Assembly (NCBI GenBank): GCA_004284765.1
Contig: NQJD01000029.1
Span: forward strand, 1 to 32,000
Direction: 5' to 3'
DNA length: 32,000 bases
Source of the DNA: Candidatus Electronema aureum
GTDB lineage: Bacteria; Desulfobacterota; Desulfobulbia; Desulfobulbales; Desulfobulbaceae
Part shown: piece by piece, positions 1 through 17,079 of the stretch
How positions within the stretch are numbered: the first letter of the stretch is position 1
How the letters are laid out: each line of letters starts with the position of its first letter
Position numbers and translations under genes: made by a program
Notes under the pieces: generated by a model
Database searches by the model: none
Seen by the model: the letters and a program-made list of their open reading frames with translations, nothing else
Told to the model about the DNA's origin: nothing

Positions 1-59
1 ATGTCTAACTTGGCTTTGGCAACGTCGATTCCGAGAATGCGCATCTGACTGACACTCAT
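1..59 (-). CDS. IS110-family transposase, first 19 codons only (gene runs off the left edge)
   Basis: Minus-strand translation from the ATG at 59..57 reads MSVSQMRILGIDVAKAKLD. This is the (I/L)GIDxxK N-terminal signature typical of IS110/DEDD transposases. A perfect AGGAGG (plus-strand cctcct, 67..72) lies 7 nt upstream of that ATG. The fragment is too short for certainty. Confidence 0.5.
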   Translation of the reverse strand, partial: MSVSQMRILGIDVAKAKLD

Positions 60-262
60 GATAAAACCTCCTGCAAACTTAACCTTGCGAATGCGGGCTT
101 CCGACTCAGTCGGGCCATTGATACTGTCCAAGTTCCAGCAGGAAAAACAGGAGATGCCGGTGCGTTATCTACGTCACGAACTTTTTGGTTCAAGGGGCGA
201 AACGGCATCCGGCTCTCCTTCCATCGGGATGGATCATGCTAATCCATCTCAATCTCATAATA

Positions 263-290
263 CAAGGGGCGAAAAATCTTTCGCCCCTAC
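263..290 (-). repeat. REP-like hairpin, GGCGAAA/TTTCGCC family, GTAG head on the minus strand
   Basis: The arms aggggcgaaa (265..274) and tttcgcccct (279..288) are perfectly complementary around a 4-nt loop. The minus strand reads GTAGGGGCGAAAGATTTTTCGCCCCTTG. The element lies 11 nt downstream of the stop of the minus-strand binding-protein gene. A half copy, caaggggcgaaa, recurs at 191..202. Confidence 0.6.
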
Positions 291-300
291 CGTAACTTCC

Positions 301-1410
301 CTACTTCACCTGCTCAAATTTGCCTTCCTTGACCGTGTACATCGTGTAGCCCACGCCGGTGGCATCGCCACGCTCGTCAAACATGATTTCGCCAAAGGGC
401 GTGACCGCGATCTTCGTGCGCAGGGCCTCCTTCAGCTCCTTGACATCGAGCTTCGCCGCCTTTTCCACCGCATTGGTCAGAGCAATAGTCGCCGTCACCG
501 CGTTGTCGAAGAATGCGCCCGGATTGTCACCGTATTTGTCTGCATACGCCTTGCGAAATTGCTGCGTCACTGCATTACTGGAAACATCTGCCGGGCCAGT
601 GGCGTACACACCTTCCGCGTATTTACCAGCAACTTTGACGAAAGTCTCGTCTTTCACGCCGTCATCGGAGAAAAACAGTGTCTTCATCTGCTTTTTCCGC
701 ATTTGAGTGACAATCTTCGATGCTTCCGGGTGATACCCGCCGAAAATCACTGCATCAGCACGGGCCATCTTAATTTTTTGCACCACAGCTGAATAATCTA
801 CCGCGCCTGGCGTGATACCTTCAAACAGCACCACCTCAGCTTTGGCATCTTTGCGAATCAAATCCTGCGCATCCTCAGCCAGACCTTTGCCGTAGTCACC
901 CTTATCGTGAATAATCGCGATCTTCTTCGCCTCCAATGCGCCTGTTGCAAACTCAGCAATTGACTTTGCTTGAGCGTTGTTCGGGGCAATAGTACGGTAA
1001 AAAGTCGGATATTTGCCGCTTGTGGTCATATCTGTGTCCGTGGCTGAAGGCGACATGACAATTACGTCCGCATCGGTGTAAATAGGCAAAGCCGCTTTGG
1101 TCGCGCCAGAGCAAATGTGACCTATCACTAACTTCACCCCAGCGGAAACAAACTTGGCTGCTATGTTTGCCGCTGTTTCTGGCTTGCAAGCATCATCCTC
1201 AATCAGCAGCTCGACCTTTGCCCCGTTGATGCCGCCTTTGGCGTTAATGTTCTCCGCCACCAACTCCGCCGCCCGCATGGTTGGAATGCCGTAGGAAGCC
1301 AGATCGCCGCTGTGCGAACCAACCACGCCAATTTTAATCGAATCAGCGGCAAAAGCATTACCTGTCAGTGCGACAGAAAACAACAAAAGCAACGTTTTGG
1401 AAAAATGCAC
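301..1410 (-). CDS. Branched-chain amino acid ABC transporter periplasmic substrate-binding protein (LivJ/LivK family)
   Basis: 369 aa with a signal peptide (MHFSKTLLLLFSVALTGNAFA). IKIGVVGSHSGDLASYGIPTMRAAELVAENINAKGGINGAKVELLIEDDACKP is the classic type-I PBP Leu/Ile/Val-binding pattern. GTG start with AGGAGG 6 nt upstream. Confidence 0.9.
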   Translation of the reverse strand: MHFSKTLLLLFSVALTGNAFAADSIKIGVVGSHSGDLASYGIPTMRAAELVAENINAKGGINGAKVELLIEDDACKPETAANIAAKFVSAGVKLVIGHICSGATKAALPIYTDADVIVMSPSATDTDMTTSGKYPTFYRTIAPNNAQAKSIAEFATGALEAKKIAIIHDKGDYGKGLAEDAQDLIRKDAKAEVVLFEGITPGAVDYSAVVQKIKMARADAVIFGGYHPEASKIVTQMRKKQMKTLFFSDDGVKDETFVKVAGKYAEGVYATGPADVSSNAVTQQFRKAYADKYGDNPGAFFDNAVTATIALTNAVEKAAKLDVKELKEALRTKIAVTPFGEIMFDERGDATGVGYTMYTVKEGKFEQVK

Positions 1411-1546
1411 AGTGTTCCTCCTTTAATAGGGTTTCATTTTGAGTTCGTCCACCAGCCCGCATTGCAAAGCGAGCCACAATCGGCTATCTTTTCACACCCA
1501 CAGAAAAAATGCACCAAAAAATTGAAAAGACAGGTGAAGAGAATAA

Positions 1547-2632
1547 ATGGATCGGAATTTTTATTATGCTCTCGGCAGGCCGCTGTCGCCGCTCTACAGC
1601 TTGATCATGCGGCTGCGGGAGCAGTTTTATCTGAACGGGGTGCTGGCCTCAACCGCGCTTGACGTGCCGGTGATCAGCATCGGCAATCTGACCTTGGGCG
1701 GCACCGGCAAGACCCCGCTGGTGCAGCATCTCGCCCGCCTGCTTCAGCGCAACGGTTTCCGGCCCGCGATCATCAGTCGGGGTTATGGCGGCGCGACCAA
1801 GGAGCGGGTCAATATTGTCTCAGACGGCAACAAGGTGCTGTTGGCTGCTTCTTATGTCGGCGATGAACCGCGTATGTTAGCCGAAACTCTGCCCGGTGTA
1901 CCAGTGCTGACCGGCGTGGTACGCAAGCTACCTGCGGCCAAGGCAATAGAAATGGGCGCGGATGTCCTGCTCCTCGATGATGGCTTTCAGCATCTTGCTA
2001 TCCACCGTGATCTTGATTTGGTGCTGTTTAGTGCGGATGAATTAGCAGGTAACTCGCGAGTTTTTCCTGGCGGCGATCTACGTGAACCGGTGCGTGCTTT
2101 GTATCGTGCTCATGCTTTTGTTCTCACCGGCACGGATGAGAGCAATATTGCGCGCGCGGTTGGTTTTAAAACGCTGCTTCAGAAAAAATTTCCCGACAGA
2201 CCGATCTTTTTCAGCGGCAGCCGAGCAGTTGGGCTGGTGCGGCAGGAGACAGACGGTAGCCGAACACAGGTGCAGCAAAACGAACTGGCAGGCCGCCGCT
2301 GTTTAGCTTTTTGCGGTATTGCCCGACCTGACGGTTTCAGAAAAACCCTGACCCAGCTGGCAATCGAACCTACCTCCTTTAAAGCTCTACCCGATCATCA
2401 TGCGTACAAAGAGCAGACTGTGCGCCAGCTTGTCCAAACAGCAGAGCAGACTCATGCCGATTGCCTACTTTGCACAGAAAAAGATTTGGTCAAACTGCGC
2501 GGGGTTGCGCTTAAACTACCGCTCTACGGAGTCATCATGCAGGCCGCGCCAGAATCGGGCTTAGATCAATTGGTACTGCATTGTGCTGCCAGGAAAAATC
2601 AGCGGTTGCCGCTGCCGGAGCAGTGTGTCTAA
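1547..2632 (+). CDS. lpxK: Tetraacyldisaccharide 4'-kinase (lipid A biosynthesis)
   Basis: 361 aa. LpxK-type P-loop context VPVISIGNLTLGGTGKTPLVQHLARLL, followed by IISRGYGG and LLDDGFQH. Confidence 0.9.
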   Translation: MDRNFYYALGRPLSPLYSLIMRLREQFYLNGVLASTALDVPVISIGNLTLGGTGKTPLVQHLARLLQRNGFRPAIISRGYGGATKERVNIVSDGNKVLLAASYVGDEPRMLAETLPGVPVLTGVVRKLPAAKAIEMGADVLLLDDGFQHLAIHRDLDLVLFSADELAGNSRVFPGGDLREPVRALYRAHAFVLTGTDESNIARAVGFKTLLQKKFPDRPIFFSGSRAVGLVRQETDGSRTQVQQNELAGRRCLAFCGIARPDGFRKTLTQLAIEPTSFKALPDHHAYKEQTVRQLVQTAEQTHADCLLCTEKDLVKLRGVALKLPLYGVIMQAAPESGLDQLVLHCAARKNQRLPLPEQCV

Positions 2633-2788
2633 AATCCCACAGATATCGGTACAATTATTTAGTGTGTCTTTTTTGCCACGATTTTTTACAAAGGAGCATT
2701 CTATACTCTGCGTATGCCATCTTTTCTTATCCTCCTGAATCATACTAAAAGTTTTCTTCTTTTTGGTTGAATGCAAAAAACAATTTTT

Positions 2789-2805
2789 TGGCCAGATTTT
2801 TGCAT
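2789..2805 (+). promoter_or_regulatory. Candidate sigma-54 (-24/-12) promoter upstream of lpxC
   Basis: TGGCCAGATTTTTGCAT matches the TGGCAC-N5-TTGCW consensus. GG (2790..2791) and GC (2802..2803) are separated by exactly 10 nt. It is intergenic, correctly oriented and about 80 nt upstream of the lpxC start. It lies in an AT-rich spacer, so a chance match is possible. Confidence 0.3.
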
Positions 2806-2883
2806 AAGAAAGTGGTACAAAGAAAGGAAAGAATAAATCCACAAAAGGGCATCATCAGGATGAACCGGCACTCGGTGAAGAAC

Positions 2884-3873
2884 ATGACAATCAACCTTGA
2901 CCCGCATCAGCACACGCTTGAGCGTACTGTCAGCTGCTGCGGTATCGGTCTGCATTCCGGCAAACCTGTAAACTTAACCATCAGGCCAGCAGAAGAACAC
3001 AGCGGCATCAGTTTCCGCCGCTCTGATCTGGGTAAAAAAAACGCTATTCCCGCACGGATGGAGCAGATTGTTGACACCACCTTAGCTACTACTCTTGGCA
3101 GCGGCAGTGAGCGTATCTCCACCACCGAACACCTGATGGCTGCCCTACACAGCGCGGGTATCGACAACGCTGAAATTGAATTAGACGGCCTTGAAGTTCC
3201 GATTATGGACGGCAGCGCAGACCCTTTTGTCCAGCTTCTCAGCAGCGGCGGCAAAAAGAAACAACGCGCTCTGCGTAAAGTTATTCGCATCATCAAGCCG
3301 GTTTCCTGTATCTCCGGTGATAAATTTATCCGCATTGAGCCGCACAACGGCTTTAAAATCACCGGCAGCATCAGTTTCGGCACTGAATTGATCAATGAGC
3401 AAAGCTACACTATTGATCTTAGCCAAGAGCGTTTTGCCCGTGAAATCGCTGGAGCACGCACCTTTGGCTTTGTCGAGCAGGTTGAGGAGCTGTGGCGCAA
3501 CGGCCTCGCTCTTGGCTGCACCCTTGAAAATGTCATTGCCATTCACTGGAATCGCCGCAGCGTCCTTAATGAGGAAGGGCTGCGTTTCGAGGATGAGTTC
3601 GTCCGTCACAAAGTGTTGGATTTAATCGGTGACTTAGCCCTGTTGGGTAGTCCGATTCTTGGCCATGTAATCGCCAGCCGCTCCGGTCATGCCCTGCATC
3701 ACAGCCTGATGAAAGCCATTGCCGATTCTCCAGACTGCTGGGAATACGTCGAATTTCGCAAGCCGGGTCAGCCCCACGTTATCGCCCCGGCAAAACCCCG
3801 GAAGAAGAGATTGTCTGTTTCTCTTCCGGGTATGTTGTTCCCCGCCGCTGCTCCTGCGCCCTGTCCGGCCTGA
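2884..3873 (+). CDS. lpxC: UDP-3-O-acyl-N-acetylglucosamine deacetylase
   Basis: QHTLERTVSCCGIGLHSGKPVNLTIRPA aligns with the E. coli LpxC N-terminus ([28 protein letters not shown]). TTEHLMAAL, FVRHKVLDLIGDL and SGHALH motifs are present. I chose the ATG at 2884; ATG 2860 is an alternative. The ORF-track start at 2767 adds an implausible basic extension. Confidence 0.9.
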   Translation: MTINLDPHQHTLERTVSCCGIGLHSGKPVNLTIRPAEEHSGISFRRSDLGKKNAIPARMEQIVDTTLATTLGSGSERISTTEHLMAALHSAGIDNAEIELDGLEVPIMDGSADPFVQLLSSGGKKKQRALRKVIRIIKPVSCISGDKFIRIEPHNGFKITGSISFGTELINEQSYTIDLSQERFAREIAGARTFGFVEQVEELWRNGLALGCTLENVIAIHWNRRSVLNEEGLRFEDEFVRHKVLDLIGDLALLGSPILGHVIASRSGHALHHSLMKAIADSPDCWEYVEFRKPGQPHVIAPAKPRKKRLSVSLPGMLFPAAAPAPCPA

Positions 3874-6577: not shown

Positions 6578-7054
6578 TCAGTCCTTATTCCGAACCGTTA
6601 TCACCTCGGCCTTACGAAGAACCGTGTTCCGCGCTGCGTCAAAGTAGCCGCGTTTCAGCACTGCAAGGATTTCTTCGTTCTCCTGCTCAGGGACGCTTTG
6701 CGTGTCCACTACCACACATTGTTCAACCTTGGCTCGGCGATCAGGGAAATGTAACGGCTCAATTTGGCGAGAACCGAGCAAACGGAGCAGCTTGCGTTGC
6801 ACGGCTCTCATGCTGTTGAGCAGACCTTGGCTTGTTTTGTCTAATGCCTCCTGTTTGCGGCGGATATTTTTTTCAATGTTGTCAAAAACATCCAGCACCT
6901 CAAATAACTCGACGAACAGCTCGTGCTCCCGATGCAGACAAAGTTCCTCTTGCTCCTTCACTGACTGCTTCAACTCGACGATTTCTCGCTGAAAAGACAC
7001 TAACTTTTCCCGCAGCAGATCACCGGGACTACTTGTCTTCTCTCCTGTTTTCAT
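6578..7054 (-). CDS. Short GrpE-like nucleotide exchange factor
   Basis: An N-terminal coiled coil is followed by FVELFEVLDVFDNIEK (compare E. coli FINELLPVIDSLDRA). Next come GLLNSMRAVQRKLLRLLGSRQIEPL and a C-terminal ILAVLKRGYFDAARNTVLRKAEVITV (compare [21 protein letters not shown]). I chose the ATG at 7054; a TTG at 7063 would overlap the upstream stop. Confidence 0.65.
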   Translation of the reverse strand: MKTGEKTSSPGDLLREKLVSFQREIVELKQSVKEQEELCLHREHELFVELFEVLDVFDNIEKNIRRKQEALDKTSQGLLNSMRAVQRKLLRLLGSRQIEPLHFPDRRAKVEQCVVVDTQSVPEQENEEILAVLKRGYFDAARNTVLRKAEVITVRNKD

Positions 7055-7059
7055 TATGC

Positions 7060-7320
7060 TCAATCAAAAATCTCCAGCCGCTTGAGAGCATCAGCACTCA
7101 GCGGTTTCTCTCCCCTAACCGGCTGTCGCAGCAGTGGTTCAAGATCGGCAAAATAAATGAACGCCAGCACGGGCCGAGCTGATGGGTCCATCAGCTGTCG
7201 CCGAGCTTCGGCAATTTCGTATGCTGAATGCTGCTTTTCCCGTAACGCTAAGGCAGCGGCCTGCATGATTTCTTGTGCCGATGCTTCTGGGCCGATATTT
7301 AGTATTTTAAAGGGATTCAT
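7060..7320 (-). CDS. Small J-like domain protein lacking the HPD motif
   Basis: 86 aa. NPFKILNIGPEASAQEIMQAAALALREK resembles J-domain helices I-II (DxYxxLGV...AS..EIkkAYrkLA). IAEARRQLMDPSAR resembles helix III-IV (INEAYEVLSDPEKR). No His-Pro-Asp lies between them. GAGG sits 8 nt upstream of the ATG. The gene overlaps the upstream gene by 14 nt. Confidence 0.45.
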   Translation of the reverse strand: MNPFKILNIGPEASAQEIMQAAALALREKQHSAYEIAEARRQLMDPSARPVLAFIYFADLEPLLRQPVRGEKPLSADALKRLEIFD

Positions 7321-8998
7321 GCCGCGCCTCTATCCGCAATCCATCAAGAACGCGCCTGATCCGCCGTACCGCGCCGTGACTGGAGTCAACCGAGCTAACG
7401 CTGTCTAATAGCTCATTTAGCGTGAAAACCGCTGCTTCCTGATCCGCATAATCGCCCCGCTCAATCCGTGCCGCTACCTGCCGGGCAGTTTCAAAAAATT
7501 GCTCAACTGCCTGTGGAAAACGGCTGGCTGTGGCGATGCGGGCTGCTTCGGCAAAGCAGTCCCGGTCAAAGGCTTCGCCTATCTCAGTCAGCGCAAGGTC
7601 GCGGCGTACTTGGTCAAAAATCATTTGGGCAAAGTCATCGTTGGGATTCAGCGCAACCGCCTTTCTCATTGCAGCGTCGAGCAGTTTTGGCGATGCTTCC
7701 TCGCTGCTGCGCAACCGCACGACCTGATTGGTTAGGGTTGAGCAAAACACAGCACCCGTCTCTGCATTTTCCGGCAGAGTCAGAATACCTAAGCAAGCGG
7801 CTAATGCGGTACCGTCCTGATTGTCATCTCGCTCTATTGCCGCGAGTAGCTGTTTCTCCAGCTCTGCTGTCCAATGTGCTGGGCCATTAATCAGAATTTG
7901 CTCCGCTTTCCGGCACTGACCTCTGTACAGATAATGCAGCCCGCAGGCTGTTCTCACCTGCGCCGCACCCCAAGCGACAAAGGGATCATCGATTTCTTCT
8001 AATTCCACCAGCGTGTCCATCGCACCGTCGTAATCACCCTCTCTGACCAGCAGGAGAGCCTGTGCCGCTGATGAATAGACTGCGCCAGCGGCCATCCATT
8101 TGCTGCTATCAGCAAAAGCATCCCGGCTCTTTTGAATCAAGATGAAAAGCTGATCAGCAATCTTGGCCTGCAACGCCAGTGCCGGTGTAAAGATCGGCAT
8201 TGCGGATAATCGGCTCATCCGTCGCAGCAAGGCAAGTTCCTCCTCCCACTGCCAGAGCAAAGAACCACCGTTGTTTAGTTGCCGTGCTGCTTGCCTGCGC
8301 AGCACGTCCACGCCAAAATCAAGCAGGGCCTGCCGCTGCGGCTCAGACTGTGGCCCAACCTCTGGGTGAAAAAGCAGCGATAGACAGCAGTTGATGAAAT
8401 GCCGCGCTTGCGCCGTCGGAATCGTTATGTCTGCTTCCATCATGAGCTGGCAAGCGGCCTTGGCCTGCACGGCCAGCGCGGTAGGCTGAAGCCAGTCGGT
8501 CTCATCAGCCGAAGCAAAGATTTCTTCTATCTGTTCTTCCTGCCAAAGCCGAGCCAAACGCAGGCTGCGACAGCGAGTCAGCAGCCCGCCACCACTCGGC
8601 AGATAAGCCAAGGAAAATTCCTCCAACAGCTGGCGAACTTCAGCTTCCTGTTTCAGTGGATTTTCATCAAGGCGGCAATGCAGTTCCTCAATCAGCAACA
8701 AGCTGACCTGTTCTTTTTGAACAATAAAATCAGGATGAGTGCAGTCAAGCTGCCGCCAGAGCCGCAGGCAAGCAATAGCATCGCCCAGCTTCACCTGAGC
8801 AAAACCGGCATGATAGAGATCAGCGGGAGCGGATAGGTTTGCCTCGGTATAGGCATCTGCCGCCTGCTGCCACTGTCCGGCCAGCAGAGCATAGCGGGCT
8901 ATCTGGAGGAATTGGGTCGGATCAGGATAAACCGTGACCTTAGTTCTGCAAAATTTCCTAACCCATGATAGAACAACAGCAAAAACCTTGCCTCTCAT
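7307..8998 (-). CDS. Large all-helical (TPR-like) repeat protein of unknown function
   Basis: 563 aa, Ala/Leu/Gln-rich. It shows repeated helix-pair patterns (for example YALLAGQWQQAADAYTEA, LLLVREGDYDGAMDTLVE, HYLYRGQCRKAEQIL). I recognise no catalytic motif. The coding call rests on length, composition and coupling to the downstream J-like gene. Confidence 0.6.
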   Translation of the reverse strand: MRGKVFAVVLSWVRKFCRTKVTVYPDPTQFLQIARYALLAGQWQQAADAYTEANLSAPADLYHAGFAQVKLGDAIACLRLWRQLDCTHPDFIVQKEQVSLLLIEELHCRLDENPLKQEAEVRQLLEEFSLAYLPSGGGLLTRCRSLRLARLWQEEQIEEIFASADETDWLQPTALAVQAKAACQLMMEADITIPTAQARHFINCCLSLLFHPEVGPQSEPQRQALLDFGVDVLRRQAARQLNNGGSLLWQWEEELALLRRMSRLSAMPIFTPALALQAKIADQLFILIQKSRDAFADSSKWMAAGAVYSSAAQALLLVREGDYDGAMDTLVELEEIDDPFVAWGAAQVRTACGLHYLYRGQCRKAEQILINGPAHWTAELEKQLLAAIERDDNQDGTALAACLGILTLPENAETGAVFCSTLTNQVVRLRSSEEASPKLLDAAMRKAVALNPNDDFAQMIFDQVRRDLALTEIGEAFDRDCFAEAARIATASRFPQAVEQFFETARQVAARIERGDYADQEAAVFTLNELLDSVSSVDSSHGAVRRIRRVLDGLRIEARHESL

Positions 8999-9097
8999 TG
9001 GGTTGCTTCCATTTGACAGAACGAGATTTTCCTGTCACTATCTTTATACGGTTTAGCCATTTTTCAACATATTCTATCAAACTTCACGGAGGATTTT

Positions 9098-9424
9098 ATG
9101 CGTAAAACAAAGAAAGCAGCACTCTTAGCCATGCTGCTGTTGTTATCGATAGTTGTCGTGACAGGTGTTCAAGCCGCAGAAAAAGAGATTAAAAAAGACG
9201 AAAAGGTAGATATGGCTACCTACACCTGCGCTGATCTTCTGGCTGAAAACGAAGACGAGGTTGGCATGATTCTATTGTGGGTTGATGGCTATTTGAGCGG
9301 TAAAACCAACGACACGGTCATCAACATGACCTTTATCGGCGAATTAGCTGAAAACGTCGGGAAAAAATGCGGCGAAAACGGAAAAGCCAAATTACTCGAC
9401 GTGGTTAAAGAACTAACGGAATAG
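9098..9424 (+). CDS. Secreted HdeA/HdeB-like small periplasmic protein
   Basis: 108 aa with a signal peptide ending VQA-AE. The motif TYTCADLL is followed by a second Cys 47 residues later (KKCGENG). E. coli HdeA has a comparable disulfide pair, Cys18-Cys66. GGAGG RBS. Confidence 0.55.
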   Translation: MRKTKKAALLAMLLLLSIVVVTGVQAAEKEIKKDEKVDMATYTCADLLAENEDEVGMILLWVDGYLSGKTNDTVINMTFIGELAENVGKKCGENGKAKLLDVVKELTE

Positions 9425-9439
9425 CCCCGAATCGCTAGT

Positions 9440-10777
9440 TCAGCGGAGAATAATTTTGACCGTCTTGCCCGGTATGACCTCCTGATTGCCGTAAAAAATC
9501 ATGCTTGAATATCTGGGCAGAAAAAATCGAGCATAGATGGAACGCCACGTCTCGTCGGACCGCACTTGGTATTTCCAGAGTATGAGGCCCTCGCGCTGTT
9601 CAATCTTGCGTTGATAAAAGGCGGCAGCCTCGCGGCGGTCAGTAAAAAGTCGCACCGAGCTGCCCTTTCTGATGAAGCCGAGGAAAATGTGGGGGTTCTG
9701 CTCCATTACCACCGGATAATATTTGCGGTTGCCGTAGAACCGCTCGGCAATGTCCCAAGCATTTTCTCCGTCCTTGACTAAATAAGAGAACGTTCCTCCG
9801 CGCTGTATTGGCGCGAAATTCTGCACCTGTTCAGCAGCAGGAGTACCGACTGTTTCCATCGCTATCGACTTCACCCGGTGCTTCCTGTACTTAGGCGTAA
9901 GAACTACAGGCGGCGTTTCCGGTAGAACGGCCAGTTCAGCATTGTTTTCCGATGGAATAGCCTGCGCTACGGCTAAAGCCTGTGGTTCAGCTACTACCAC
10001 AGCCGCTTCTACTTCTGCCGGATTTGCTGATTTTTCCTCCGCTGGTGCCAATGGCACTGCTTGCTCCGTTGTTTTTTCAACAGGAACTGGTGGTGGCATC
10101 TTACTGCCTAACAACTCTACCTCGGCTGTGTCCGGGAGTACCTCCTCTCGAACAACTTTTACAAGTTTTGTCGCCTCGTTCTCAGCTTCTACCGTTTTTT
10201 TCTGATCTACAGGAAGCTCATCCGGCACAAGGGCACGCTCGCTTTTTTCCTTGGCGACAACAGGCACAGCATTCTCCTCTGTATTCTTGCTGGAAGTCTG
10301 CTCGTGGTTTTCGCCTACAAGTTCCTGCTTTGCTGCGACAGTTTCCGTCTCTCGCTCATCCAAGATGCGCACCTGAGCATCAATATGAATTTTGCTTTCA
10401 GGAGGCAGCACCGGTTCGACAACGTTTTTATTTTCTGGCGCGGATGACAATGACTCTTCGTGCTTTTTCTTCATTGCCGCCCGCTGTTCCGCCGCCTTGA
10501 GTTCGGCTAACTGGTGGTCTAATTCAGACAAACGACTTTTCATGCTCACTGATAGACCAGCAAGGAGCAACAGGACAGCAGTCACAATGATCGCGATAGC
10601 AACCCAAGGAAAACGACGTTTGGGTAGCAGAGCTGCTGCTGTTTTGGCCGCTGCTGGGTCAGAGAGCGAATCTAAGGCTTGAAAACAGGTCAGGTCTGCA
10701 TCGCACTGAGGGCAGCTGCCGCAGTTCGGCGGTAAGCCGTGCCGTCCACAAACCGGACAGGTGTGCGTCTGACTCAT
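9440..10777 (-). CDS. Bitopic envelope protein: N-terminal zinc ribbon, one TM helix, coiled coil, long E/P/A/V-rich linker, two C-terminal LysM-like repeats
   Basis: 445 aa. CPVCGRHGLPPNCGSCPQCDADL is followed by the TM segment FPWVAIAIIVTAVLLLLAGLSV. A low-complexity spacer of about 200 aa follows. The C-terminus has YLVKDGENAWDIAERFYGN...VRLF and YQVRSDETWRSIYARFF...GKTVKIIL (LysM-like). The ATG overlaps the Hsp70 stop (ATGA). Confidence 0.75.
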   Translation of the reverse strand: MSQTHTCPVCGRHGLPPNCGSCPQCDADLTCFQALDSLSDPAAAKTAAALLPKRRFPWVAIAIIVTAVLLLLAGLSVSMKSRLSELDHQLAELKAAEQRAAMKKKHEESLSSAPENKNVVEPVLPPESKIHIDAQVRILDERETETVAAKQELVGENHEQTSSKNTEENAVPVVAKEKSERALVPDELPVDQKKTVEAENEATKLVKVVREEVLPDTAEVELLGSKMPPPVPVEKTTEQAVPLAPAEEKSANPAEVEAAVVVAEPQALAVAQAIPSENNAELAVLPETPPVVLTPKYRKHRVKSIAMETVGTPAAEQVQNFAPIQRGGTFSYLVKDGENAWDIAERFYGNRKYYPVVMEQNPHIFLGFIRKGSSVRLFTDRREAAAFYQRKIEQREGLILWKYQVRSDETWRSIYARFFLPRYSSMIFYGNQEVIPGKTVKIILR

Positions 10778-13089
10778 TTGCGAATATCTCGGTGAATTTT
10801 CTGAATGCTGCGACCGTGCTGGTCCAGCACCTCTTCGACTTCTGGCATCACTGCCAGCACCTGTTCAAAACGCAGCTCCTCGCCCGCCTCAGCCGAGGCC
10901 AGCACCTCTGCTGCCGCCCGCATAAAACGCTTGGCCTTATCTGGCTCAGTTTGGTGGCAAATTTCGCAAGCATTCTCAATCTGCGTCAAGGCGTGTACCA
11001 CCTCCAGTCCCGGATTCTCTAAAACATTGGACAGCTCATCCATTGCCTGCATGGTTTCCTCATAGCTTCCTTCTTCATCGGTCTCGCGCAGCTGCTGGAT
11101 TTTTCTCAAAATGCGTTCCTGTAAGGCTGGCGCGATCAGCATTCCATAATCCGCCAACATGCTTTCTGCGTAATAAATCTGGGTTAGCGGAGCTTCCTCG
11201 GCTTCGGAGATGCGCACCGCCTTGTTGATCTTTTCCTCCACCCGACGGCAAGCAGCTCCATCAACCTCACCGGTTTGCGCATCAACCACTTTATGGAGCG
11301 CGCGAATAATACCTTTAGCCCGACAGAGCAAATCGGCCACCGTATAGGTAGAGCAGCCTTTGCGGTCAGCCTCATTAATGATCTGCTCAAGGCGCAGAAA
11401 GAGTCGCTCATCCGCCTTGCCGCGCGAGAGCGTACCTTCCACCTTCCCCTTGAGTTGGCCGACTAAGGCCGCCTGCACTGAAACCAAATTATTTTCATCG
11501 ATGTTCAAAGTGACAGCAAGACGCGGCAATTCTTCCGTCTGCGGCGCGGTTGTGCTATCTCGATCGATGCCTAACCAAAGGTCGCCGATGCGTTCCTCTT
11601 TGTTATTGACCACATTATAAAATTGCATATGCACCAGCTCTTGTTCGGCATCAACAAGCTGAAAAATCTCCGTGCTGGAGCAGGGTAATACACTGTTTTT
11701 TTTCACCAAGAGAAAACGCTGATCATTCTCCAAGCGGATGAAGTAGTCATGGGCCGCTGCATGAACGATATCGACCAGACCATGCTTGGTTGTGTAGGTT
11801 GCGAGATTAAATTGGCAATGCGGGCAGTTGGCGTTATGCTGGGATGTTTCCCCACCGCAGCTCGGACATTCCAGCGTATCTGCTAATCGATGGCTGAGAA
11901 TAGCTGCACCTTCGGCCACTGCCAACATAGGCCGCTCATGGAGTAACACTTTGTCTGCACCAAATTCCTGCCGCAGCGTCTTGATTACACAGGGAATACG
12001 CGAACTACCGCCGACTAAAAGCACATGGTCAATCAAATCCGGGCTGAAATACGCCTCGGCCAGTAAATTTCGCAGCAATCGGAGCATGGTTGTCAGCAAA
12101 GGAGCCAGCATCTCCTCTAACTGTTCTTGGCTCAATTCTGCTTCAATATGAATCGGATCGCCGTCCTCGTCCGTGAGCAAACCAAGCACAGCAATGCAGG
12201 CTTCGGGGCTGTCGCTGAGGGCAATTTTAGCCTTTTCTGCCGCCGTTTTTAGTTCGGCAAGCAAACGATTGCGCTGACTTGGCTCCAGCCGTCCGAGCAG
12301 AGCGCGGAGGCGAACATCATCCATGCCTTCCTTGGCCGCTGTTTCTCGCAGGGCATGGCTAATGATCAGGTTGTCGATGTCCTCGCCACCTAACCACATG
12401 TCGCCGCCTTTGGCCATTTCAATGATCTGGCCGCCGCTGATCGCCAGCAGCGAGAGGTCGAGAGTGCCGCCGCCGAAATCAAAAACCAGCACGGTTTTGC
12501 CTTCGTCACTAGATATCTGATCCACGCCAAAGGAAATGGCTGCTGCTGTCGGCTCGGACAAAAGACGGCTGACTTTGAGACCAGCCAAAGCAGCAGCGGT
12601 GCGGGTGGCGTGCTTTTGTTTATCGTTGAAATAGGCAGGCACGGTGATCACTGCTGTCTCTACCTCATCACCGAGGATACGTTCGGCATCAGCCTTGATT
12701 TTAATGAGAATCTGGGCTGAAATTTCTTCTGGGCTGAACTCTCGTCCTCCGGCAGCAATCGCCAAACTGTTCTGAGAACCGCTGGAATAGGGCGAGAGCG
12801 GACAGCGAAATCTGCCGTTTTTAATCAGTTCTTGCACTTCTGGATCGTGAAAATTGCGTCCAATTAGCCGCTTGACCGCTGTGATAGTGTTCTCCGGTTC
12901 CTGCCGCAGCCATTCCAAAGCGTGGCGACCGACGATGAACTCTGGTTTGCGTATCAGCCGTTTACGAACAGTGACGCAAGAAGGAGTGATGAAGTCACCT
13001 TCTGCATTTTTCAGCACCTCAACCCGCACTTTTTTAATCGCGGCAGCGGAATTGGTAGTTCCCAGATCAATGCCGATGGATTTTTTCAT
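10774..13089 (-). CDS. Atypical Hsp70/DnaK-family ATPase with a zinc ribbon inserted between NBD and SBD and a long helical C-terminal extension
   Basis: NBD motifs are intact: IGIDLGTTNSAAA, VITVPAYFNDKQKHATRTAAALAGL, LSEPTAAAISFG, VLVFDFGGGTLDLSLL, VLLVGGSSRIPCV. CPSCGG-x8-NCPHC (CxxC-x10-CxxC) follows. Then comes a beta-rich SBD-like segment (LVHMQFYN...LAVTLNIDENNLVSVQA) and about 230 aa of helices. I set the start at the ATG at 13089 (MKKSIGIDLG). The ORF-track extension to 13149 overlaps the upstream kinase gene. Confidence 0.9.
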   Translation of the reverse strand: MKKSIGIDLGTTNSAAAIKKVRVEVLKNAEGDFITPSCVTVRKRLIRKPEFIVGRHALEWLRQEPENTITAVKRLIGRNFHDPEVQELIKNGRFRCPLSPYSSGSQNSLAIAAGGREFSPEEISAQILIKIKADAERILGDEVETAVITVPAYFNDKQKHATRTAAALAGLKVSRLLSEPTAAAISFGVDQISSDEGKTVLVFDFGGGTLDLSLLAISGGQIIEMAKGGDMWLGGEDIDNLIISHALRETAAKEGMDDVRLRALLGRLEPSQRNRLLAELKTAAEKAKIALSDSPEACIAVLGLLTDEDGDPIHIEAELSQEQLEEMLAPLLTTMLRLLRNLLAEAYFSPDLIDHVLLVGGSSRIPCVIKTLRQEFGADKVLLHERPMLAVAEGAAILSHRLADTLECPSCGGETSQHNANCPHCQFNLATYTTKHGLVDIVHAAAHDYFIRLENDQRFLLVKKNSVLPCSSTEIFQLVDAEQELVHMQFYNVVNNKEERIGDLWLGIDRDSTTAPQTEELPRLAVTLNIDENNLVSVQAALVGQLKGKVEGTLSRGKADERLFLRLEQIINEADRKGCSTYTVADLLCRAKGIIRALHKVVDAQTGEVDGAACRRVEEKINKAVRISEAEEAPLTQIYYAESMLADYGMLIAPALQERILRKIQQLRETDEEGSYEETMQAMDELSNVLENPGLEVVHALTQIENACEICHQTEPDKAKRFMRAAAEVLASAEAGEELRFEQVLAVMPEVEEVLDQHGRSIQKIHRDIRK

Positions 13090-13115
13090 ACCGTGTCTGT
13101 TCGGAGCAGAGGGGA

Positions 13116-14192
13116 TCAGAGGGCAGAAAGGGTAAAGCTGAAGACGCACCCTCTTTCAGCTTGATTTTCAGCTCGAAGAACACCACCATGTAGCTCAATG
13201 ATTTTTTTCACCACGGCCCAGCCGAGACGGCTATCTTTTCTACTGTCCGCCGGACCTGCTGGATCAGCAAACAAGTGTTCCAGCTCTTTTTCGCTCAAGC
13301 CCGGCCCTTGATCAGCAACCGCCACGCGGACTGCGCTGCCTGCCTGCTCCGCGCTCAAGACAACAACTGAGCCAGCCGGAGAATGCTTAACCGCGTTGCT
13401 CAAGAGATTATCTACCGCTTGTCGAATGCGGCTTGGATCAAGATTGAAAATCGGCAGCGTAGTCAGACGCTCAACAATGACGATTTGTTTCTTTGCTGCT
13501 GCTTGTTGCTGTAGTTGCGCTGCCTGCCGAAGAACTTCTGTGAGCGAGGCAGGCTGCCTGTTGATCTTAAAGGTACCATCACCAACGGCGGAAACATCGA
13601 GCAAGTCGTTGATTAGGCGCTGCATGGCTGTGGCCGTCTCGTTAATGGCCAGCAGGTGCGTATCTATATTACTGCGCATTTCAAAAAAACTGCTATCCAT
13701 CAGCATTTCGGTCATGGTGATAATGTAGCCGAGCGGATTGCGCAAATCATGGGCAGCAATGCGCAAAAAACGATCTTTAATCTTATCTAATTCTAACAAG
13801 CGGTCGTGTGCCTCAACGAGCCGCCTGCCCACAGAAATTCGGCTGTGCAGTTCACCAATATGCACCGGTTTGCTGAGAAAATCATGCGCCCCATGATCTA
13901 AAGCATGAACCACATCCTCCTTGTCGCTTCTACCAGTGAGTAGAATGGTGTAGATCAGCGGCACAGCACCTTTTTCCTGCGCATTGAGCCGAGAGCAGAT
14001 TTCTACCCCATCTAAGCCGGGCATCATCCAGTCTAACACCGCGATTCGGGGTGGTTCTGGGCTGCGCAGGATGGTCATGGCCTCCAGTCCATCCGCAGCC
14101 TCAATCACCTCATAGCCCCAGCGGGCCGCGCAATGCCGGAGCAAAATTCGGGTAGAAAGTTCATCGTCGGCGATCAGTAGTTTCATGGACAT
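13116..14192 (-). CDS. Hybrid receiver (REC) - histidine kinase (HisKA + HATPase_c) without a recognisable sensor domain
   Basis: 358 aa. REC: MKLLIADDE...IAVLDWMMPGLDG...K. H-box FLRIAAHDLRNPL. ATPase boxes NLLSNAVKH, VADQGPGLS, GWAVVKKIIELHGG. No TM segment is visible. Confidence 0.9.
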   Translation of the reverse strand: MSMKLLIADDELSTRILLRHCAARWGYEVIEAADGLEAMTILRSPEPPRIAVLDWMMPGLDGVEICSRLNAQEKGAVPLIYTILLTGRSDKEDVVHALDHGAHDFLSKPVHIGELHSRISVGRRLVEAHDRLLELDKIKDRFLRIAAHDLRNPLGYIITMTEMLMDSSFFEMRSNIDTHLLAINETATAMQRLINDLLDVSAVGDGTFKINRQPASLTEVLRQAAQLQQQAAAKKQIVIVERLTTLPIFNLDPSRIRQAVDNLLSNAVKHSPAGSVVVLSAEQAGSAVRVAVADQGPGLSEKELEHLFADPAGPADSRKDSRLGWAVVKKIIELHGGVLRAENQAERGCVFSFTLSAL

Positions 14193-14479
14193 GGTGCGTT
14201 TTTTTTCAAAAGACGGGGAAAAGGTGACGTGTCAACGTAAAGTAAAAACACAATGAAGTCAACACGAACAGCCAGTAACTGCGAGCATCTTCCGCAGATA
14301 TTTTTCCTGCCAGCAAGTTGCCTGTTGCTCATTTTCAGAGGTATCATATATGATGGCAGCCTAATTTTGGTGTATTATACTCAGACAGCGGCGGATTGTA
14401 TATATTTTGGAAAAAATGAGCCAGCAGCGGCGCATCTTGCGCAGTTATTCAGCCTTTGTTTTTTGGCAAGAACAAAATC

Positions 14480-15076
14480 ATGACCACTGATACCGGATTT
14501 TTGCTCTACGCCGCTCTGTACCGATTGGCTGTGCTGGCAGTTGGTGCGTTGTCTATTTGGCTGGGCTTTCGTTTGTTCAGCAATGCCAAGCAAGAGAACA
14601 GCTCGGCTGATGGCTCCGTCAGCGCGGAAGGCGGTGGTTTCAAGCTGGCCTTCACCAATTTGCTGCCCGGAACTTATTTCGCGTTGTTCGGCACGGTGAT
14701 CATCAGCGTAATGCTATGGAAAGGCGAGCCGCAATTCTTTCAGCAGGAACTCAAGGAGCTGACCAAAGGCGAGAAGACAGTCACGACAACAGAATTGCGC
14801 ACCAGCATAGAACTGGAATGGAAAAAGCTGGATAAGTCCGGCATCACGCTGGCGGAAGCAGCCGAGACTATGGAAACCATTGCCAAGCTGCTGCGGCAGG
14901 AAAACCGCATCGGCGAAGCAGTGGCGATGGCAAAGCTGGCGGCTTTGTACGGCAAAGAAGAAGGCAGGGCGGAGCGTCTTGATTTGCTGGCTGAACTGCT
15001 GCGGGCAAATGGCAATGAGGAGGAGGCAGTGCAAACCGAGCAGGCCGCCGAATCCTTGCGGAGGCCAGAGAAATGA
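14480..15076 (+). CDS. Two-TM membrane protein with a helical, E/A/K-rich C-terminal domain
   Basis: TM1 FLLYAALYRLAVLAVGALSIWLGF and TM2 LLPGTYFALFGTVIISVMLW. The tail is helical (AEAAETMETIAKLLRQENRIGEAVAMAKLAALYGKEEG...). The stop overlaps the caspase-gene ATG (ATGA). I preferred the ATG at 14480 over the TTG at 14456. There is no clear SD. Confidence 0.55.
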   Translation: MTTDTGFLLYAALYRLAVLAVGALSIWLGFRLFSNAKQENSSADGSVSAEGGGFKLAFTNLLPGTYFALFGTVIISVMLWKGEPQFFQQELKELTKGEKTVTTTELRTSIELEWKKLDKSGITLAEAAETMETIAKLLRQENRIGEAVAMAKLAALYGKEEGRAERLDLLAELLRANGNEEEAVQTEQAAESLRRPEK

Positions 15077-16476
15077 AGCTGCGCGGAAGACGCTTGCTGC
15101 TGCTGATCGCGCTGATCGCGCTGGCCGTGCTGCCTGCGGCGGCGCAGGCGCAGACAGCTTCCGGCTTTGGCCGTTGTTTTCATGCCGTGGTGATTGGGTG
15201 TCAGAATTACAAGCATCTCAGGACGCTGAAAACGCCGCTGGCTGATGCTAAAGCGGTCGCTAAGGTGCTGAAAGAGCAGTATGGCTTCACGGTGAACTTG
15301 CTGTTGGACAAAAACAGGGACGAAATTATGCTGGCCCTGTCCGAGCTGCGCAAAACCATGACTGCGGAAGAGGACAGCCTGCTGATCTACTACGCCGGAC
15401 ACGGCTATTTGGACGAGGCGAGCGGAGCGGGGTACTGGCAGCCCGTGGATGCGGAGAAGGACAACATTGTTTATTGGCTTCCGACCTCAGAAATCAGCAA
15501 TTTGCTCAGAGCAATCCGCGTTCGGCACGTGCTGGTGGTGGCAGATTCTTGCTATTCAGGGGAAATCGTCATGCGCAAATCAGAGGCGCAGCTTCCCGCC
15601 GCCGTCAGCAATGACGAATGGCTGCGGCGGATGCAGGCGAAACGGTCGCGCCAAGCCTTGACTTCCGGCCTGAAAGAGCCTGTAATGGACGGCGGGGGCG
15701 GCGGCCATTCGATCTTCGCCAAGGCGTTGCTGGAGGCATTGCGGGAAAACCGGCAGATACTGGACGGAACAAGACTGTTCAGCCTCATCAAAGATCCGGT
15801 CTCGAACAACGCCCTGCAACAGCCCGTGTATGACTCCATCCCGATGACCGGGCATGAGATGGGAGATTTTCTGCTGGTGCCGAAGGAGTTGCAGAAGGGA
15901 GGAATTCAGGCGCAGCCGGAGCACAAGGCGGATTTGAGTTTTCTGCAACGCAGCGGCGGTAACAGCGCAGCCACGCTGCCAGAAAAACCGCGCCAGAATG
16001 CCGACCTACAGAAAGGCAGAACTATTGGGCAATATATTGATTATGGCGACGGCACGATAACTGACACGAAAAGCGGCTTGATGTGGAAACGCTGTCCAGA
16101 AGGTTTATTCGGCGTGAACTGCGAAGAGGGCAAGATTGAAACCTATAAATGGGATGATGTGTTTCAGCGTTTCAAGAATATCGAATACGCAGGCTATTCT
16201 GACTGGCGGCTGCCGACCATTGCTGAACTGAAAACTTTGGTATATTGCAGCAATGGAGTTAAAGACAAAGATTACGGTCGCTGCAACGAGGGGTCTGAAG
16301 AACCGACGATCAATCAACAGGCTTTTCCGAATACTGAGGCAAATTACTTTTGGTCCGGGTCGCCGCATGCCGACAATTCGGACCTTGCGTGGTACGTCCA
16401 TTTTGCCTATGGCAGTTCCTCCATCAGCAACCGCGTCAACAGCGATGCGGTACGTCTGGTGCGCGGCGGATGGTAG
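15073..16476 (+). CDS. Secreted caspase-like (peptidase C14) protease fused to a DUF1566/Lcl-C-terminal-like domain
   Basis: 467 aa with signal peptide MKLRGRRLLLLIALIALAVLPAAAQA. The caspase His/Cys dyad contexts are LLIYYAGHGY and VLVVADSCYSGE. The C-terminal part has GLMWKRCPEG...YSDWRLPTIAELKTLVYC...FWSGSP...AWYVHFAYGS...VRLVRGG, typical of DUF1566. Confidence 0.85.
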   Translation: MKLRGRRLLLLIALIALAVLPAAAQAQTASGFGRCFHAVVIGCQNYKHLRTLKTPLADAKAVAKVLKEQYGFTVNLLLDKNRDEIMLALSELRKTMTAEEDSLLIYYAGHGYLDEASGAGYWQPVDAEKDNIVYWLPTSEISNLLRAIRVRHVLVVADSCYSGEIVMRKSEAQLPAAVSNDEWLRRMQAKRSRQALTSGLKEPVMDGGGGGHSIFAKALLEALRENRQILDGTRLFSLIKDPVSNNALQQPVYDSIPMTGHEMGDFLLVPKELQKGGIQAQPEHKADLSFLQRSGGNSAATLPEKPRQNADLQKGRTIGQYIDYGDGTITDTKSGLMWKRCPEGLFGVNCEEGKIETYKWDDVFQRFKNIEYAGYSDWRLPTIAELKTLVYCSNGVKDKDYGRCNEGSEEPTINQQAFPNTEANYFWSGSPHADNSDLAWYVHFAYGSSSISNRVNSDAVRLVRGGW

Positions 16477-16500
16477 GGACACGGCATGCCGTGTCCCTAC
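16473..16500. repeat. REP, 28-bp perfect palindrome GTAGGGACACGGCATGCCGTGTCCCTAC (copy 1)
   Basis: The sequence is self-complementary over all 28 nt. Its GTAG head contains the TAG stop (16474..16476) of the caspase-like gene. An identical 28-mer recurs at 16805..16832. Confidence 0.85.
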
Positions 16501-16530: not shown

Positions 16531-17079
16531 ATGATATTCAACCCGGAAATCTACCGCCGCCGCTCCATCCGTCTGCCCGGTTACGATTACACCAGAGCGG
16601 GCGCGTATTTCATCACCGTATGCGCCAGCGGCAAGGAATGCCTGTTCGGTGCGGTGGAAAACGGGCAAATGCGGCTGAATGATGCCGGTCGGATTGCCGA
16701 TCAATGCTGGCACGACATTCCATTGCATTTTCATCATGCGATATTGGACGAATGGGTGGTAATGCCGAATCATGTGCATGGGATTGTTGTTCTTGACCAT
16801 TGTCGTAGGGACACGGCATGCCGTGTCCCTACGACAATGGCGACAGCGGAACAATTTGGCCGTCCAGTTGCTGGCTCGATTTCAACCATTGTCCGTTCAT
16901 TCAAATCCGCTGTCACCCATCATCTCAACAAATTGCATGGTGCCGTCGGCGAAAAAATCTGGCAGCGCAATTTCTACGAACACATCATCCGCAATGAAAC
17001 AGAATTGCACGGCATCCGCGAATACATCCAGAACAATCCCGCCAAATGGGAATTGGATGAACTGCATGTCGCAGTGTAG
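16531..17079 (+). CDS. REP-associated tyrosine transposase (RAYT; IS200/IS605-like Y1 HUH enzyme)
   Basis: 182 aa. YDYTRAGAYFITVCASGKECLFG is followed by the HUH motif in VVMPNHVHGIVVL. The Tyr region is IWQRNFYEHIIRNETELHGIREYIQNNPAKWELD. The ORF contains a 14-codon palindrome-encoded segment (HCRRDTACRVPTTM). Confidence 0.85.
   Translation: MIFNPEIYRRRSIRLPGYDYTRAGAYFITVCASGKECLFGAVENGQMRLNDAGRIADQCWHDIPLHFHHAILDEWVVMPNHVHGIVVLDHCRRDTACRVPTTMATAEQFGRPVAGSISTIVRSFKSAVTHHLNKLHGAVGEKIWQRNFYEHIIRNETELHGIREYIQNNPAKWELDELHVAV
16798..16839. repeat. 42-bp perfect palindrome (REP copy 2 plus 7-bp extended arms) inside the RAYT coding sequence
   Basis: CATTGTCGTAGGGACACGGCATGCCGTGTCCCTACGACAATG equals its own reverse complement. 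Its core is identical to 16473..16500. 42 nt equals 14 codons, and the RAYT frame is maintained. Confidence 0.9.

Follow-up and report, generated by a model that had tools for sequence, protein, structure and literature searches.

A 2021 review distinguishes three types of bacterial Hsp70, namely DnaK, HscA and HscC (PMC8215388), and a 2026 review lists "DnaK derivates" without an assigned function as an open problem (PMC13580251). Here, we describe a gene cassette found in a 32,000-nucleotide stretch of Candidatus Electronema aureum (positions 1 to 32,000 of contig NQJD01000029.1, GenBank assembly GCA_004284765.1), referred to below as the window. The cassette encodes an Hsp70 paralogue with a zinc-ribbon insert, a membrane protein with a zinc ribbon, a transmembrane (TM) helix and LysM-like repeats, a tetratricopeptide repeat (TPR) protein, a J-domain-like (J-like) protein and a GrpE-like nucleotide exchange factor. 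It is apparently an undescribed, specialised Hsp70 system with dedicated partners, and it is unusual in having a ribbon at an allosteric junction, a J-fold protein without the HPD (His-Pro-Asp) motif and a LysM anchor. No description of it was found by full-text search, whose coverage is incomplete and which is not proof of absence, and database entries for its members carry the names "Hsp70 family protein", "tetratricopeptide repeat protein", "hypothetical protein" and "molecular chaperone DnaK".

The closest described bacterial systems are similar in part. HscA-HscB and HscC-DjlB/DjlC also place a paralogous Hsp70, presumed to have few clients, beside dedicated co-chaperones, and HscC works with membrane-anchored J-proteins and has been proposed to act at the plasma membrane (PMC8215388). 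However, HscA and HscC are 550–620 residues long, lack a zinc-ribbon insert, are thought not to use GrpE and partner with true HPD-bearing J-domains, whereas the Hsp70 of the cassette has 771 residues and an enlarged C-terminal domain, and it is accompanied by a dedicated GrpE, a J-like protein that lacks HPD, a TPR protein and a membrane protein with LysM. The conflict theme built around GAP1-N2 and DO-GTPases (Kaur et al, 2020; PMC7159879) likewise brings an extra Hsp70, its own GrpE and J- or TPR-bearing and membrane-associated components into one neighbourhood. Unlike those systems, the cassette has no DO-GTPase, GAP1, FNIII, tubulin or variable effectors, stands alone and is constant in composition; LysM is nowhere mentioned in that paper (Kaur, Burroughs, Iyer and Aravind, 2020).

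Two further comparisons hold on paper or by description only. The mitochondrial presequence-translocase motor consists of mtHsp70, Tim44, Pam16/Pam18, Mge1 and Zim17/Hep1, the last of these being a zinc-ribbon factor that acts on the region of Hsp70 joining the nucleotide-binding domain (NBD) to the linker. The two would have in common a membrane-held Hsp70, a GrpE-type factor and an HPD-less J-like subunit (Pam16), whereas the cassette has no translocon and no HPD-bearing J-protein equivalent to Pam18, carries its ribbon in cis and has a membrane protein that faces peptidoglycan. FimV and HubP are LysM-TM-TPR organisers made as single polypeptides, with LysM at the N-terminus and TPR at the C-terminus. 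They could be likened to the cassette in that a periplasmic LysM, which binds peptidoglycan, is joined through the membrane with a TPR scaffold in the cytoplasm, but their topology is the opposite one and no Hsp70, GrpE or J-like protein goes with them.

A five-gene cassette inherited in one order

Candidatus Electronema aureum is a freshwater cable bacterium; the TPR protein of the window is identical to CDV28_1298, and another window protein is 100% identical to CDV28_1297. A scan of one genome per species gave 80 loci in at least six phyla. Their hosts belong to Desulfobacterota, Spirochaetales, Elusimicrobia, Gammaproteobacteria, Nitrosomonas and Verrucomicrobia; among them are cable bacteria, many Desulfobacterales (Desulfonema magnum and Desulfobacter latus included), Thiotrichales, Achromatium, Methylococcales and Victivallales. 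Order and strand are fixed: Hsp70, the zinc ribbon-TM-LysM protein (hereafter the partner), a TPR protein of ~690 residues, a J-like protein of ~90 residues and a GrpE-like protein of ~150–160 residues. This order was established both by tblastn with the window proteins and by independent clustering of open reading frames (ORFs), and the two agree. With the tblastn counts limited to loci with enough downstream sequence, the TPR protein was found in 52/62 loci, the J-like protein in 42/44 and GrpE in 37/41, and at least 34/41 loci have all four partners in order; divergent TPR copies missed by tblastn were recovered by ORF clustering. Across phyla, all five genes are passed on as one block whose order does not change. 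Remote variants keep the plan of the cassette, with partners of 149–320 residues. No other recurrent neighbour was found in the 144 flanking ORFs, which match 227 Pfam families, none of them in more than three proteins.

The initial annotation of the window, made from the sequence alone, had described a three-gene operon of histidine kinase, Hsp70 and LysM protein. Its account of the layout was accurate, as the three genes all lie on the minus strand, the gap between kinase and Hsp70 is exactly 26 nucleotides, and an ATGA is shared by the Hsp70 stop and the partner start. Tabulation of the genes downstream of Hsp70 also upheld the pairing with the LysM protein, which directly follows Hsp70 in 70/71 loci with room for it, at an estimated gap with a median of 0 nucleotides. 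This adjacency is far beyond chance, and the two genes form an obligate and apparently translationally coupled pair. The operon itself did not survive in the form proposed, since the kinase is found upstream of Hsp70 only in six Electronema-type loci (L001–L006) and three core genes, those for TPR, J-like and GrpE proteins, had been overlooked. This was probably because they are separated from the others by a gene for an HdeA/HdeB-family periplasmic chaperone (9098..9424, plus strand; Pfam HdeA 7e-17), which lies between the partner and TPR genes. An HdeA-family gene occupies the same position in one close relative (L004, 6428–6700) and is absent from the other loci; it is an interrupter of the window cassette and not a member. 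As this opposite-strand gene splits the cassette, the cassette genes of the window make up two transcription units.

The kinase (358 residues, 13116..14192, minus strand) is a two-component hybrid histidine kinase with receiver, HisKA and HATPase_c domains (Pfam Response_reg 4e-23, HisKA 1e-11 and HATPase_c 7e-21), an H-box AAHDLRNPL and a receiver Asp in VLDWMMPG; it was correctly described as having a receiver but neither a sensor nor a TM domain. It is probably co-transcribed with Hsp70. Its absence outside L001–L006 ruled it out as a core component, and it is a lineage-specific neighbour of the conserved cassette. In Electrothrix, unrelated genes stand upstream of Hsp70, namely those for fumarate-reductase-like subunits, an AAA_21 ATPase and a PDDEXK transposase. 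A scan of the window for promoters and terminators yielded a single weak site that resembles a promoter and lies upstream of the kinase. This best sigma-70-like match (TATACA-17-TATAAT, 14374..14402, minus strand; 10/12 consensus matches) possibly marks the start of a kinase/Hsp70/partner transcript.

Components of the Hsp70 system

The Hsp70 paralogue (771 residues, 10774..13089, minus strand) matches Pfam HSP70 at 9e-104 over residues 5–402. We placed its start at ATG 13089 instead of the GTG 13149 of the ORF list, as all homologues begin M-[SK]-K-S-I-G-I-D-L-G. With an actin-fold NBD, a linker, a beta-sandwich substrate-binding domain (SBD) and a helical lid, it is a member of the Hsp70 superfamily (PF00012); in order, it consists of the NBD (residues 1–402), the zinc-ribbon insert, a linker-like segment, SBD-beta (~438–545) and an enlarged, nine-helix C-terminal domain (559–760). 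The motifs GIDLGTTNS, KRLxGR, EPTAAA, DxGGGTxD and GGSSRIP are kept in 72–74 of the 74 homologues, among which the SBD is also strongly conserved, and from its sequence the protein is predicted to be ATPase-competent. It scores below the curated NCBIfam cut-offs both for DnaK (NF001413, 340 bits vs 648; TIGR02350, 334 bits vs 823) and for HscA (TIGR01991, 261 bits vs 709; NF003520, 263 bits vs 620). By BLASTP, it is 33% identical to E. coli DnaK (sequence entered by hand) over 552 columns, in an alignment that reaches DnaK residue 488. Considering that a search with its C-terminal half (residues 401–771) against 1.84 billion representative proteins found only 108 hits, whose full-length members are ~720–790 residues long, we regard it as a distinct Hsp70 subfamily. 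Myxococcus SglK/GrpS was considered as a relative and rejected, since SglK is of the canonical DnaK type and complements dnaK of E. coli.

The zinc-ribbon insert (residues 405–437, 11779..11877, minus strand) carries C408, C411, C422 and C425 and sits at the junction of NBD and linker. Alignment to DnaK maps it as a single 31-residue block between L390 and L391, inside the 388-DVLLLD-393 linker region, and phmmer against chains of the PDB implies the same insertion of ~30 residues. A CPSC-x10-CPHC motif had been reported exactly at the NBD-SBD junction, in the place of the conserved interdomain linker. The motif is indeed there, but the linker is not replaced; it follows the ribbon. The G-V-x-DIVHSAAHDYY segment directly after the ribbon is highly conserved and corresponds in the alignment to the last part of the DnaK linker plus the first strand of the SBD, so that the linker is displaced, not lost. 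All four cysteines are present in 73/74 homologues, a figure that may be slightly inflated because, of the six peptide patterns by which loci were retrieved, one was derived from the ribbon; the exception, L080 from Verrucomicrobia, has a Ser-rich spacer instead. The C-terminal-half search is free of this bias and corrects for it: among its 48 full-length relatives, the insert is present in only 11. An AlphaFold2 model of the Hsp70 (52-sequence alignment; predicted local distance difference test, pLDDT, 85.6; predicted template modelling score, pTM, 0.78) shows the cysteine motif as a folded insert (pLDDT 74–88), followed by a beta-sandwich (440–542) and helices (559–760). In Foldseek, the model resembles full-length Hsp70s in ATP-bound, domain-docked states at TM-scores of 0.73–0.86 (for example 6eob, with a root mean square deviation of 3.6 Å over 569 columns); at the sequence level, the match of the SBD is weak (mortalin, 11 bits). 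The initial annotation expected the insert to alter NBD-SBD coupling; it may do so, in a protein that keeps its linker-like segment and whose model superposes on domain-docked structures.

The partner (445 residues, 9440..10777, minus strand) is bitopic, with an N-terminal zinc ribbon, one TM helix, a spacer rich in E, A, V, P and K, and two LysM-like repeats. Its ribbon (residues 7–25, CPVC-x11-CPQC; 10703..10759, minus strand) continues as D-A-D-L-x-C-F, giving a CPQCDADLxCF motif, and C7, C10, C22, P23, Q24, C25, F32 and L35 are invariant in 54 homologues. The reading CPVC-x8-CGSCPQC given in the initial annotation matches the sequence, but C19 of CGSC is not conserved and the ligands are C7, C10, C22 and C25. 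Each homologue has one strongly hydrophobic segment that starts near residue 59, and the spacer after it ranges from 12 to 321 residues. In the window copy, the low-complexity spacer of ~240–250 residues does lead into two C-terminal LysM-like repeats (residues ~329–445; 9440..9793, minus strand), as had been proposed with a spacer of ~200 residues. While this copy has no Pfam LysM match and only an NCBIfam LysM match at E 0.003, PF01476 matches 43/54 homologues (best E 8e-14), and the window sequence fits their two-repeat consensus. From this architecture, we infer that the ribbon is cytoplasmic and the LysM region periplasmic. As the protein is bitopic in this orientation, an arrangement from cytoplasm to peptidoglycan is plausible, and to this extent the trans-envelope layout suggested earlier stands; the obligate ribbon docking that came with it is unsupported (see below).

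The remaining genes lie beyond the HdeA-family gene, and the TPR and J-like ORFs overlap, as do the J-like and GrpE ORFs. The conserved third gene encodes a large helical/TPR protein (563 residues, 7307..8998, minus strand) that is ~690 residues long in most other lineages, the Electronema copies being ~125 residues shorter at the N-terminus; the window protein has no Pfam match, and TPR families match 32/48 homologues. The fifth gene encodes a short GrpE-like nucleotide exchange factor (161 residues, 6578..7063, minus strand; Pfam GrpE 8.7e-8). It scores 32.5 bits against the PF01025 cut-off of 25.8 and falls below the NCBIfam equivalog cut-offs, and its family profile matches residues 96–209 of the GrpE chain 4ani (E 5e-7). 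In L002, the J-like ORF (15044–15829) extends to 261 residues, and no GrpE was detected behind the J-like gene in L002 or in L005 (downstream of 15487), which could reflect loss, fusion or frameshift.

The J-like protein (86 residues, 7060..7320, minus strand) has no HPD and ends in a conserved L-x-x-L-x-I-F-D tail, which could conceivably be a docking peptide. An AlphaFold2 model built on 12 close sequences has helices at residues 3–7, 15–28, 33–44 and 49–57, with pLDDT above 88 over residues 1–50, in the four-helix arrangement of a J fold. The 50 top PDB matches of this model in Foldseek are almost all J domains (E 0.08–1), and hhalign aligns the family with J-domain sequences entered by hand (57%, E 1e-4), with the HPD loop deleted. 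Against Pfam DnaJ (PF00226), the window protein scores 14.4 bits vs a gathering threshold of 27.8, and there are weak matches in 21/46 homologues (best E 0.003). None of the 46 homologues has HPD; the loop between helices II and III is shortened, with the sequence K-Q-H-S in the window copy and R-K-Y-[SP]-x-R as the family pattern. We also considered whether another cassette protein hides an HPD, and the candidate, a conserved VDxxHPxL near the C-terminus of the TPR protein, was rejected as it is not the HPD J motif. In L084, the two are one polypeptide, in which the J-like domain (hhalign 95%, E 2e-8) forms the C-terminal end of the TPR-like protein, which supports the TPR and J-like proteins acting as one J-protein-like unit.

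Proposed function and alternative readings

We give about even odds (roughly 0.5) to the reading that the five genes encode a self-contained, specialised Hsp70 machine at the inner face of the cytoplasmic membrane. In such a machine, the TPR and J-like proteins would form a split J-protein-like targeting factor, with the TPR protein as the scaffold or client-binding half. The membrane protein would recruit the machine, or be its client, by way of the invariant N-terminal ribbon and adjoining CPQCDADLxCF segment, so that the LysM protein may be an anchor, a receptor or a client. ATP hydrolysis, in cycles that the dedicated GrpE resets, would remodel a membrane-proximal assembly, and this remodelling could couple the peptidoglycan-attached periplasmic module to the cytoplasmic scaffold. 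The Hsp70 ribbon would be a later, subclade-specific addition, which may serve to stabilise the region of NBD and linker or provide one more contact, to the similar ribbon of the partner, and the kinase would be a regulatory add-on specific to Electronema. Candidates for the process served are envelope sensing, the assembly of scaffolds at defined wall sites and defence.

Several observations weigh against this reading. The contacts between the proteins are deduced from the linkage of their genes and a single fusion. Known J-domains need HPD to stimulate the Hsp70 ATPase; with an HPD-less J-like protein and no HPD-bearing J-protein in the cassette, the reading offers no trigger for hydrolysis. 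Support for the J fold is moderate (hhalign 57%, Foldseek E 0.08–1, Pfam below threshold), and the J-like profile found no J domain among PDB sequences, only designed coiled coils, a result that is uninformative. GrpE went undetected in L002 and L005, and L004 has none of the last three genes nearby. In the window, the opposite-strand gene means that the five genes cannot be a single transcript.

The alternative that came with the initial annotation, in which docking through the two zinc ribbons of a kinase/Hsp70/LysM operon holds the ATPase at the cytoplasmic end of a peptidoglycan-tethered protein, appears unlikely to us. It would account for the nearly universal adjacency of Hsp70 and partner, and the two ribbons are of the same type, their profiles aligning in hhalign at 95.8% (E 7e-9 over 31 columns), but short Cys-rich profiles score easily, which inflates such values, and the ribbon type is generic. 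We examined the gene context of several relatives from the C-terminal-half search with and without an Hsp70 ribbon. Where the Hsp70 has the ribbon, as in L086, L089 and L092, its partner has ribbon and LysM, and among the loci examined none has a ribbon-bearing Hsp70 beside a ribbon-less partner. The converse does not hold. Ribbon-less Hsp70s stand beside partners with a ribbon, a TM segment and a LysM-like region (L081) or with a ribbon, a TM segment and a coiled coil (L083 and L091); in L080, the Hsp70 ribbon is lost and the partner ribbon retained; in L088, the partner of a ribbon-less Hsp70 has half a ribbon, and in L084 neither protein has one. As the partner ribbon persists beside ribbon-less Hsp70s in four or five lineages, we consider it older than, and independent of, the Hsp70 ribbon. 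The rarity of the insert (11/48 full-length relatives) and the confinement of the kinase to L001–L006 also speak against this alternative. Docking as an obligate interaction is not supported; an accessory homotypic contact between the ribbons is possible. Less probable still is a trans-envelope energy coupler, in which a membrane-held Hsp70 motor pulls or remodels the cytoplasmic tip of the peptidoglycan-bound protein, so that ATP hydrolysis is turned into a mechanical or conformational change at the cell wall or the status of the wall is passed to the cytoplasm. It would liken the Hsp70, with its own exchange factor and degenerate J subunit, loosely to the mitochondrial import motor.

A biological-conflict system (anti-phage or containment) in the sense of Kaur et al (2020), in which the LysM protein senses wall damage and the Hsp70/TPR pair provides an NTP-dependent threshold switch or assembly, is a reading to which we give a low probability. 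The patchy distribution across phyla at ~45–55% identity suggests horizontal transfer, GTPase-centred conflict systems include HSP70, GrpE and DnaJ/TPR themes (Kaur et al, 2020; PMC7159879), and a caspase pair lies near the cassette in the window. Neighbours of conflict type occur in other loci too, with Fic, RelA_SpoT and HTH genes in L081, a DarT gene in L092 and AAA_15/21 genes in L008 and L084. In L082, a remote, ribbon-less Hsp70 relative adjoins a DO-GTPase2 gene and an Hsp70-vWA fusion, near Big_2 repeat proteins (1–3009, 7476–9686), a neighbourhood that belongs to the GTPase-centred conflict systems described by Kaur et al (2020). However, the composition of the cassette is constant, with no effector enzyme or variable module, and the genes on either side of it are varied, mostly of housekeeping type, and include no defence family that recurs. 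The window has no DO-GTPase, GAP1, tubulin or FNIII gene; no GTPase was found among the window ORFs scanned, none recurs in the 144 flanking ORFs of related loci, and DO-GTPase2 was seen only in L082. In PADLOC-DB 2.0, the Hsp70, partner, TPR and J-like proteins had no match and GrpE only one at chance level (E 0.0014), which counts as no match for any cassette protein. A known defence system was rejected on these PADLOC results and the absence of a recurrent flanking family. The evidence against the conflict reading is stronger than that for it. We give very little credence to an ordinary stress-chaperone duplicate, that is, a second DnaK/GrpE set with coincidental neighbours. An NBD 33% identical to that of E. 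coli DnaK and the annotations "molecular chaperone DnaK" and "Hsp70 family protein" would fit it. A plain second DnaK is excluded, however, because the curated cut-offs are missed (NCBIfam DnaK 340 vs 648, HscA 263 vs 620), the C-terminal half is family-specific and the linkage to LysM and TPR genes is fixed across phyla; in addition, the zinc-ribbon insert is present, no DnaJ gene accompanies the set and the J-like protein has no HPD.

Surroundings of the cassette and its significance

Non-homologous kinases recur near the cassette. Besides the histidine kinase of Electronema, extra genes accompany distant variants of the cassette. In L090 (363–11555), the gene order is permuted, and next come a Ser/Thr kinase-FHA-TPR protein and an M48 peptidase; L092 (1787–13032) has a 1468-residue third protein, with a DarT-domain protein encoded upstream and a Ser/Thr kinase of Pkinase-AAA type downstream. 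The gene directly after Hsp70 in L087 encodes a kinase-like N-lobe fragment (2505–2780). These cases are anecdotal and hint at control of the cassette by phosphorylation. A copy of the ribbon-bearing Hsp70 that is 54% identical lies on a 2.6-kb low-coverage contig binned as Promethearchaeota (L014, in an Asgard metagenome-assembled genome), and it is most likely a binning contaminant and not an archaeal gene.

Elsewhere in the window, Rfam and tRNA scans were both empty. A divergently transcribed gene pair (14456–16476, plus strand) with a 4-nucleotide overlap encodes a 206-residue protein with N-terminal hydrophobic helices and then a caspase (Peptidase_C14) with a C-terminal Lcl_C/DUF1566 domain, which scores 80 bits vs 140, below threshold, against the NCBIfam model "caspase, EACC1-associated type". 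A conflict system of two genes, EACC1 and caspase, has a similar layout (Kaur et al, 2020), but no EACC1 model matches the 206-residue protein. A 28-nucleotide palindrome, GTAGGGACACGGCATGCCGTGTCCCTAC, is present in two perfect copies (16473–16500 and 16805–16832), where zero would be expected by chance. One copy is just upstream of a gene for a repetitive extragenic palindrome (REP)-associated tyrosine transposase (RAYT; 16531–17079) and the other is inside that ORF. Since the match of this ORF to Y1_Tnp is confined to its C-terminal part and the palindrome lies within the ORF, the RAYT gene may have been disrupted by its own REP element. Between 18000 and 22000, the GC content is 0.64–0.67 vs ~0.51 in the rest of the window. 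Within this block are the 3′ portion of a gene for an MsbA-like ABC transporter, a gene that fuses O-antigen ligase and glycosyltransferase (822 residues) and the 5′ portion of a heptosyltransferase gene, and its composition suggests horizontally acquired lipopolysaccharide genes.

Considered as a specialised Hsp70 system, the cassette would add a further class of bacterial Hsp70, and one "DnaK derivate" would gain a fixed set of partners. It would also offer a concrete system for asking how an Hsp70 cycle runs without a canonical J-domain, and the site of the insertion would allow the effect of a zinc ribbon at the allosteric NBD-linker junction to be tested. Such work may draw on cultivable hosts, as the cassette is carried by Desulfonema magnum 4be13 and Desulfobacter latus AcRS2.

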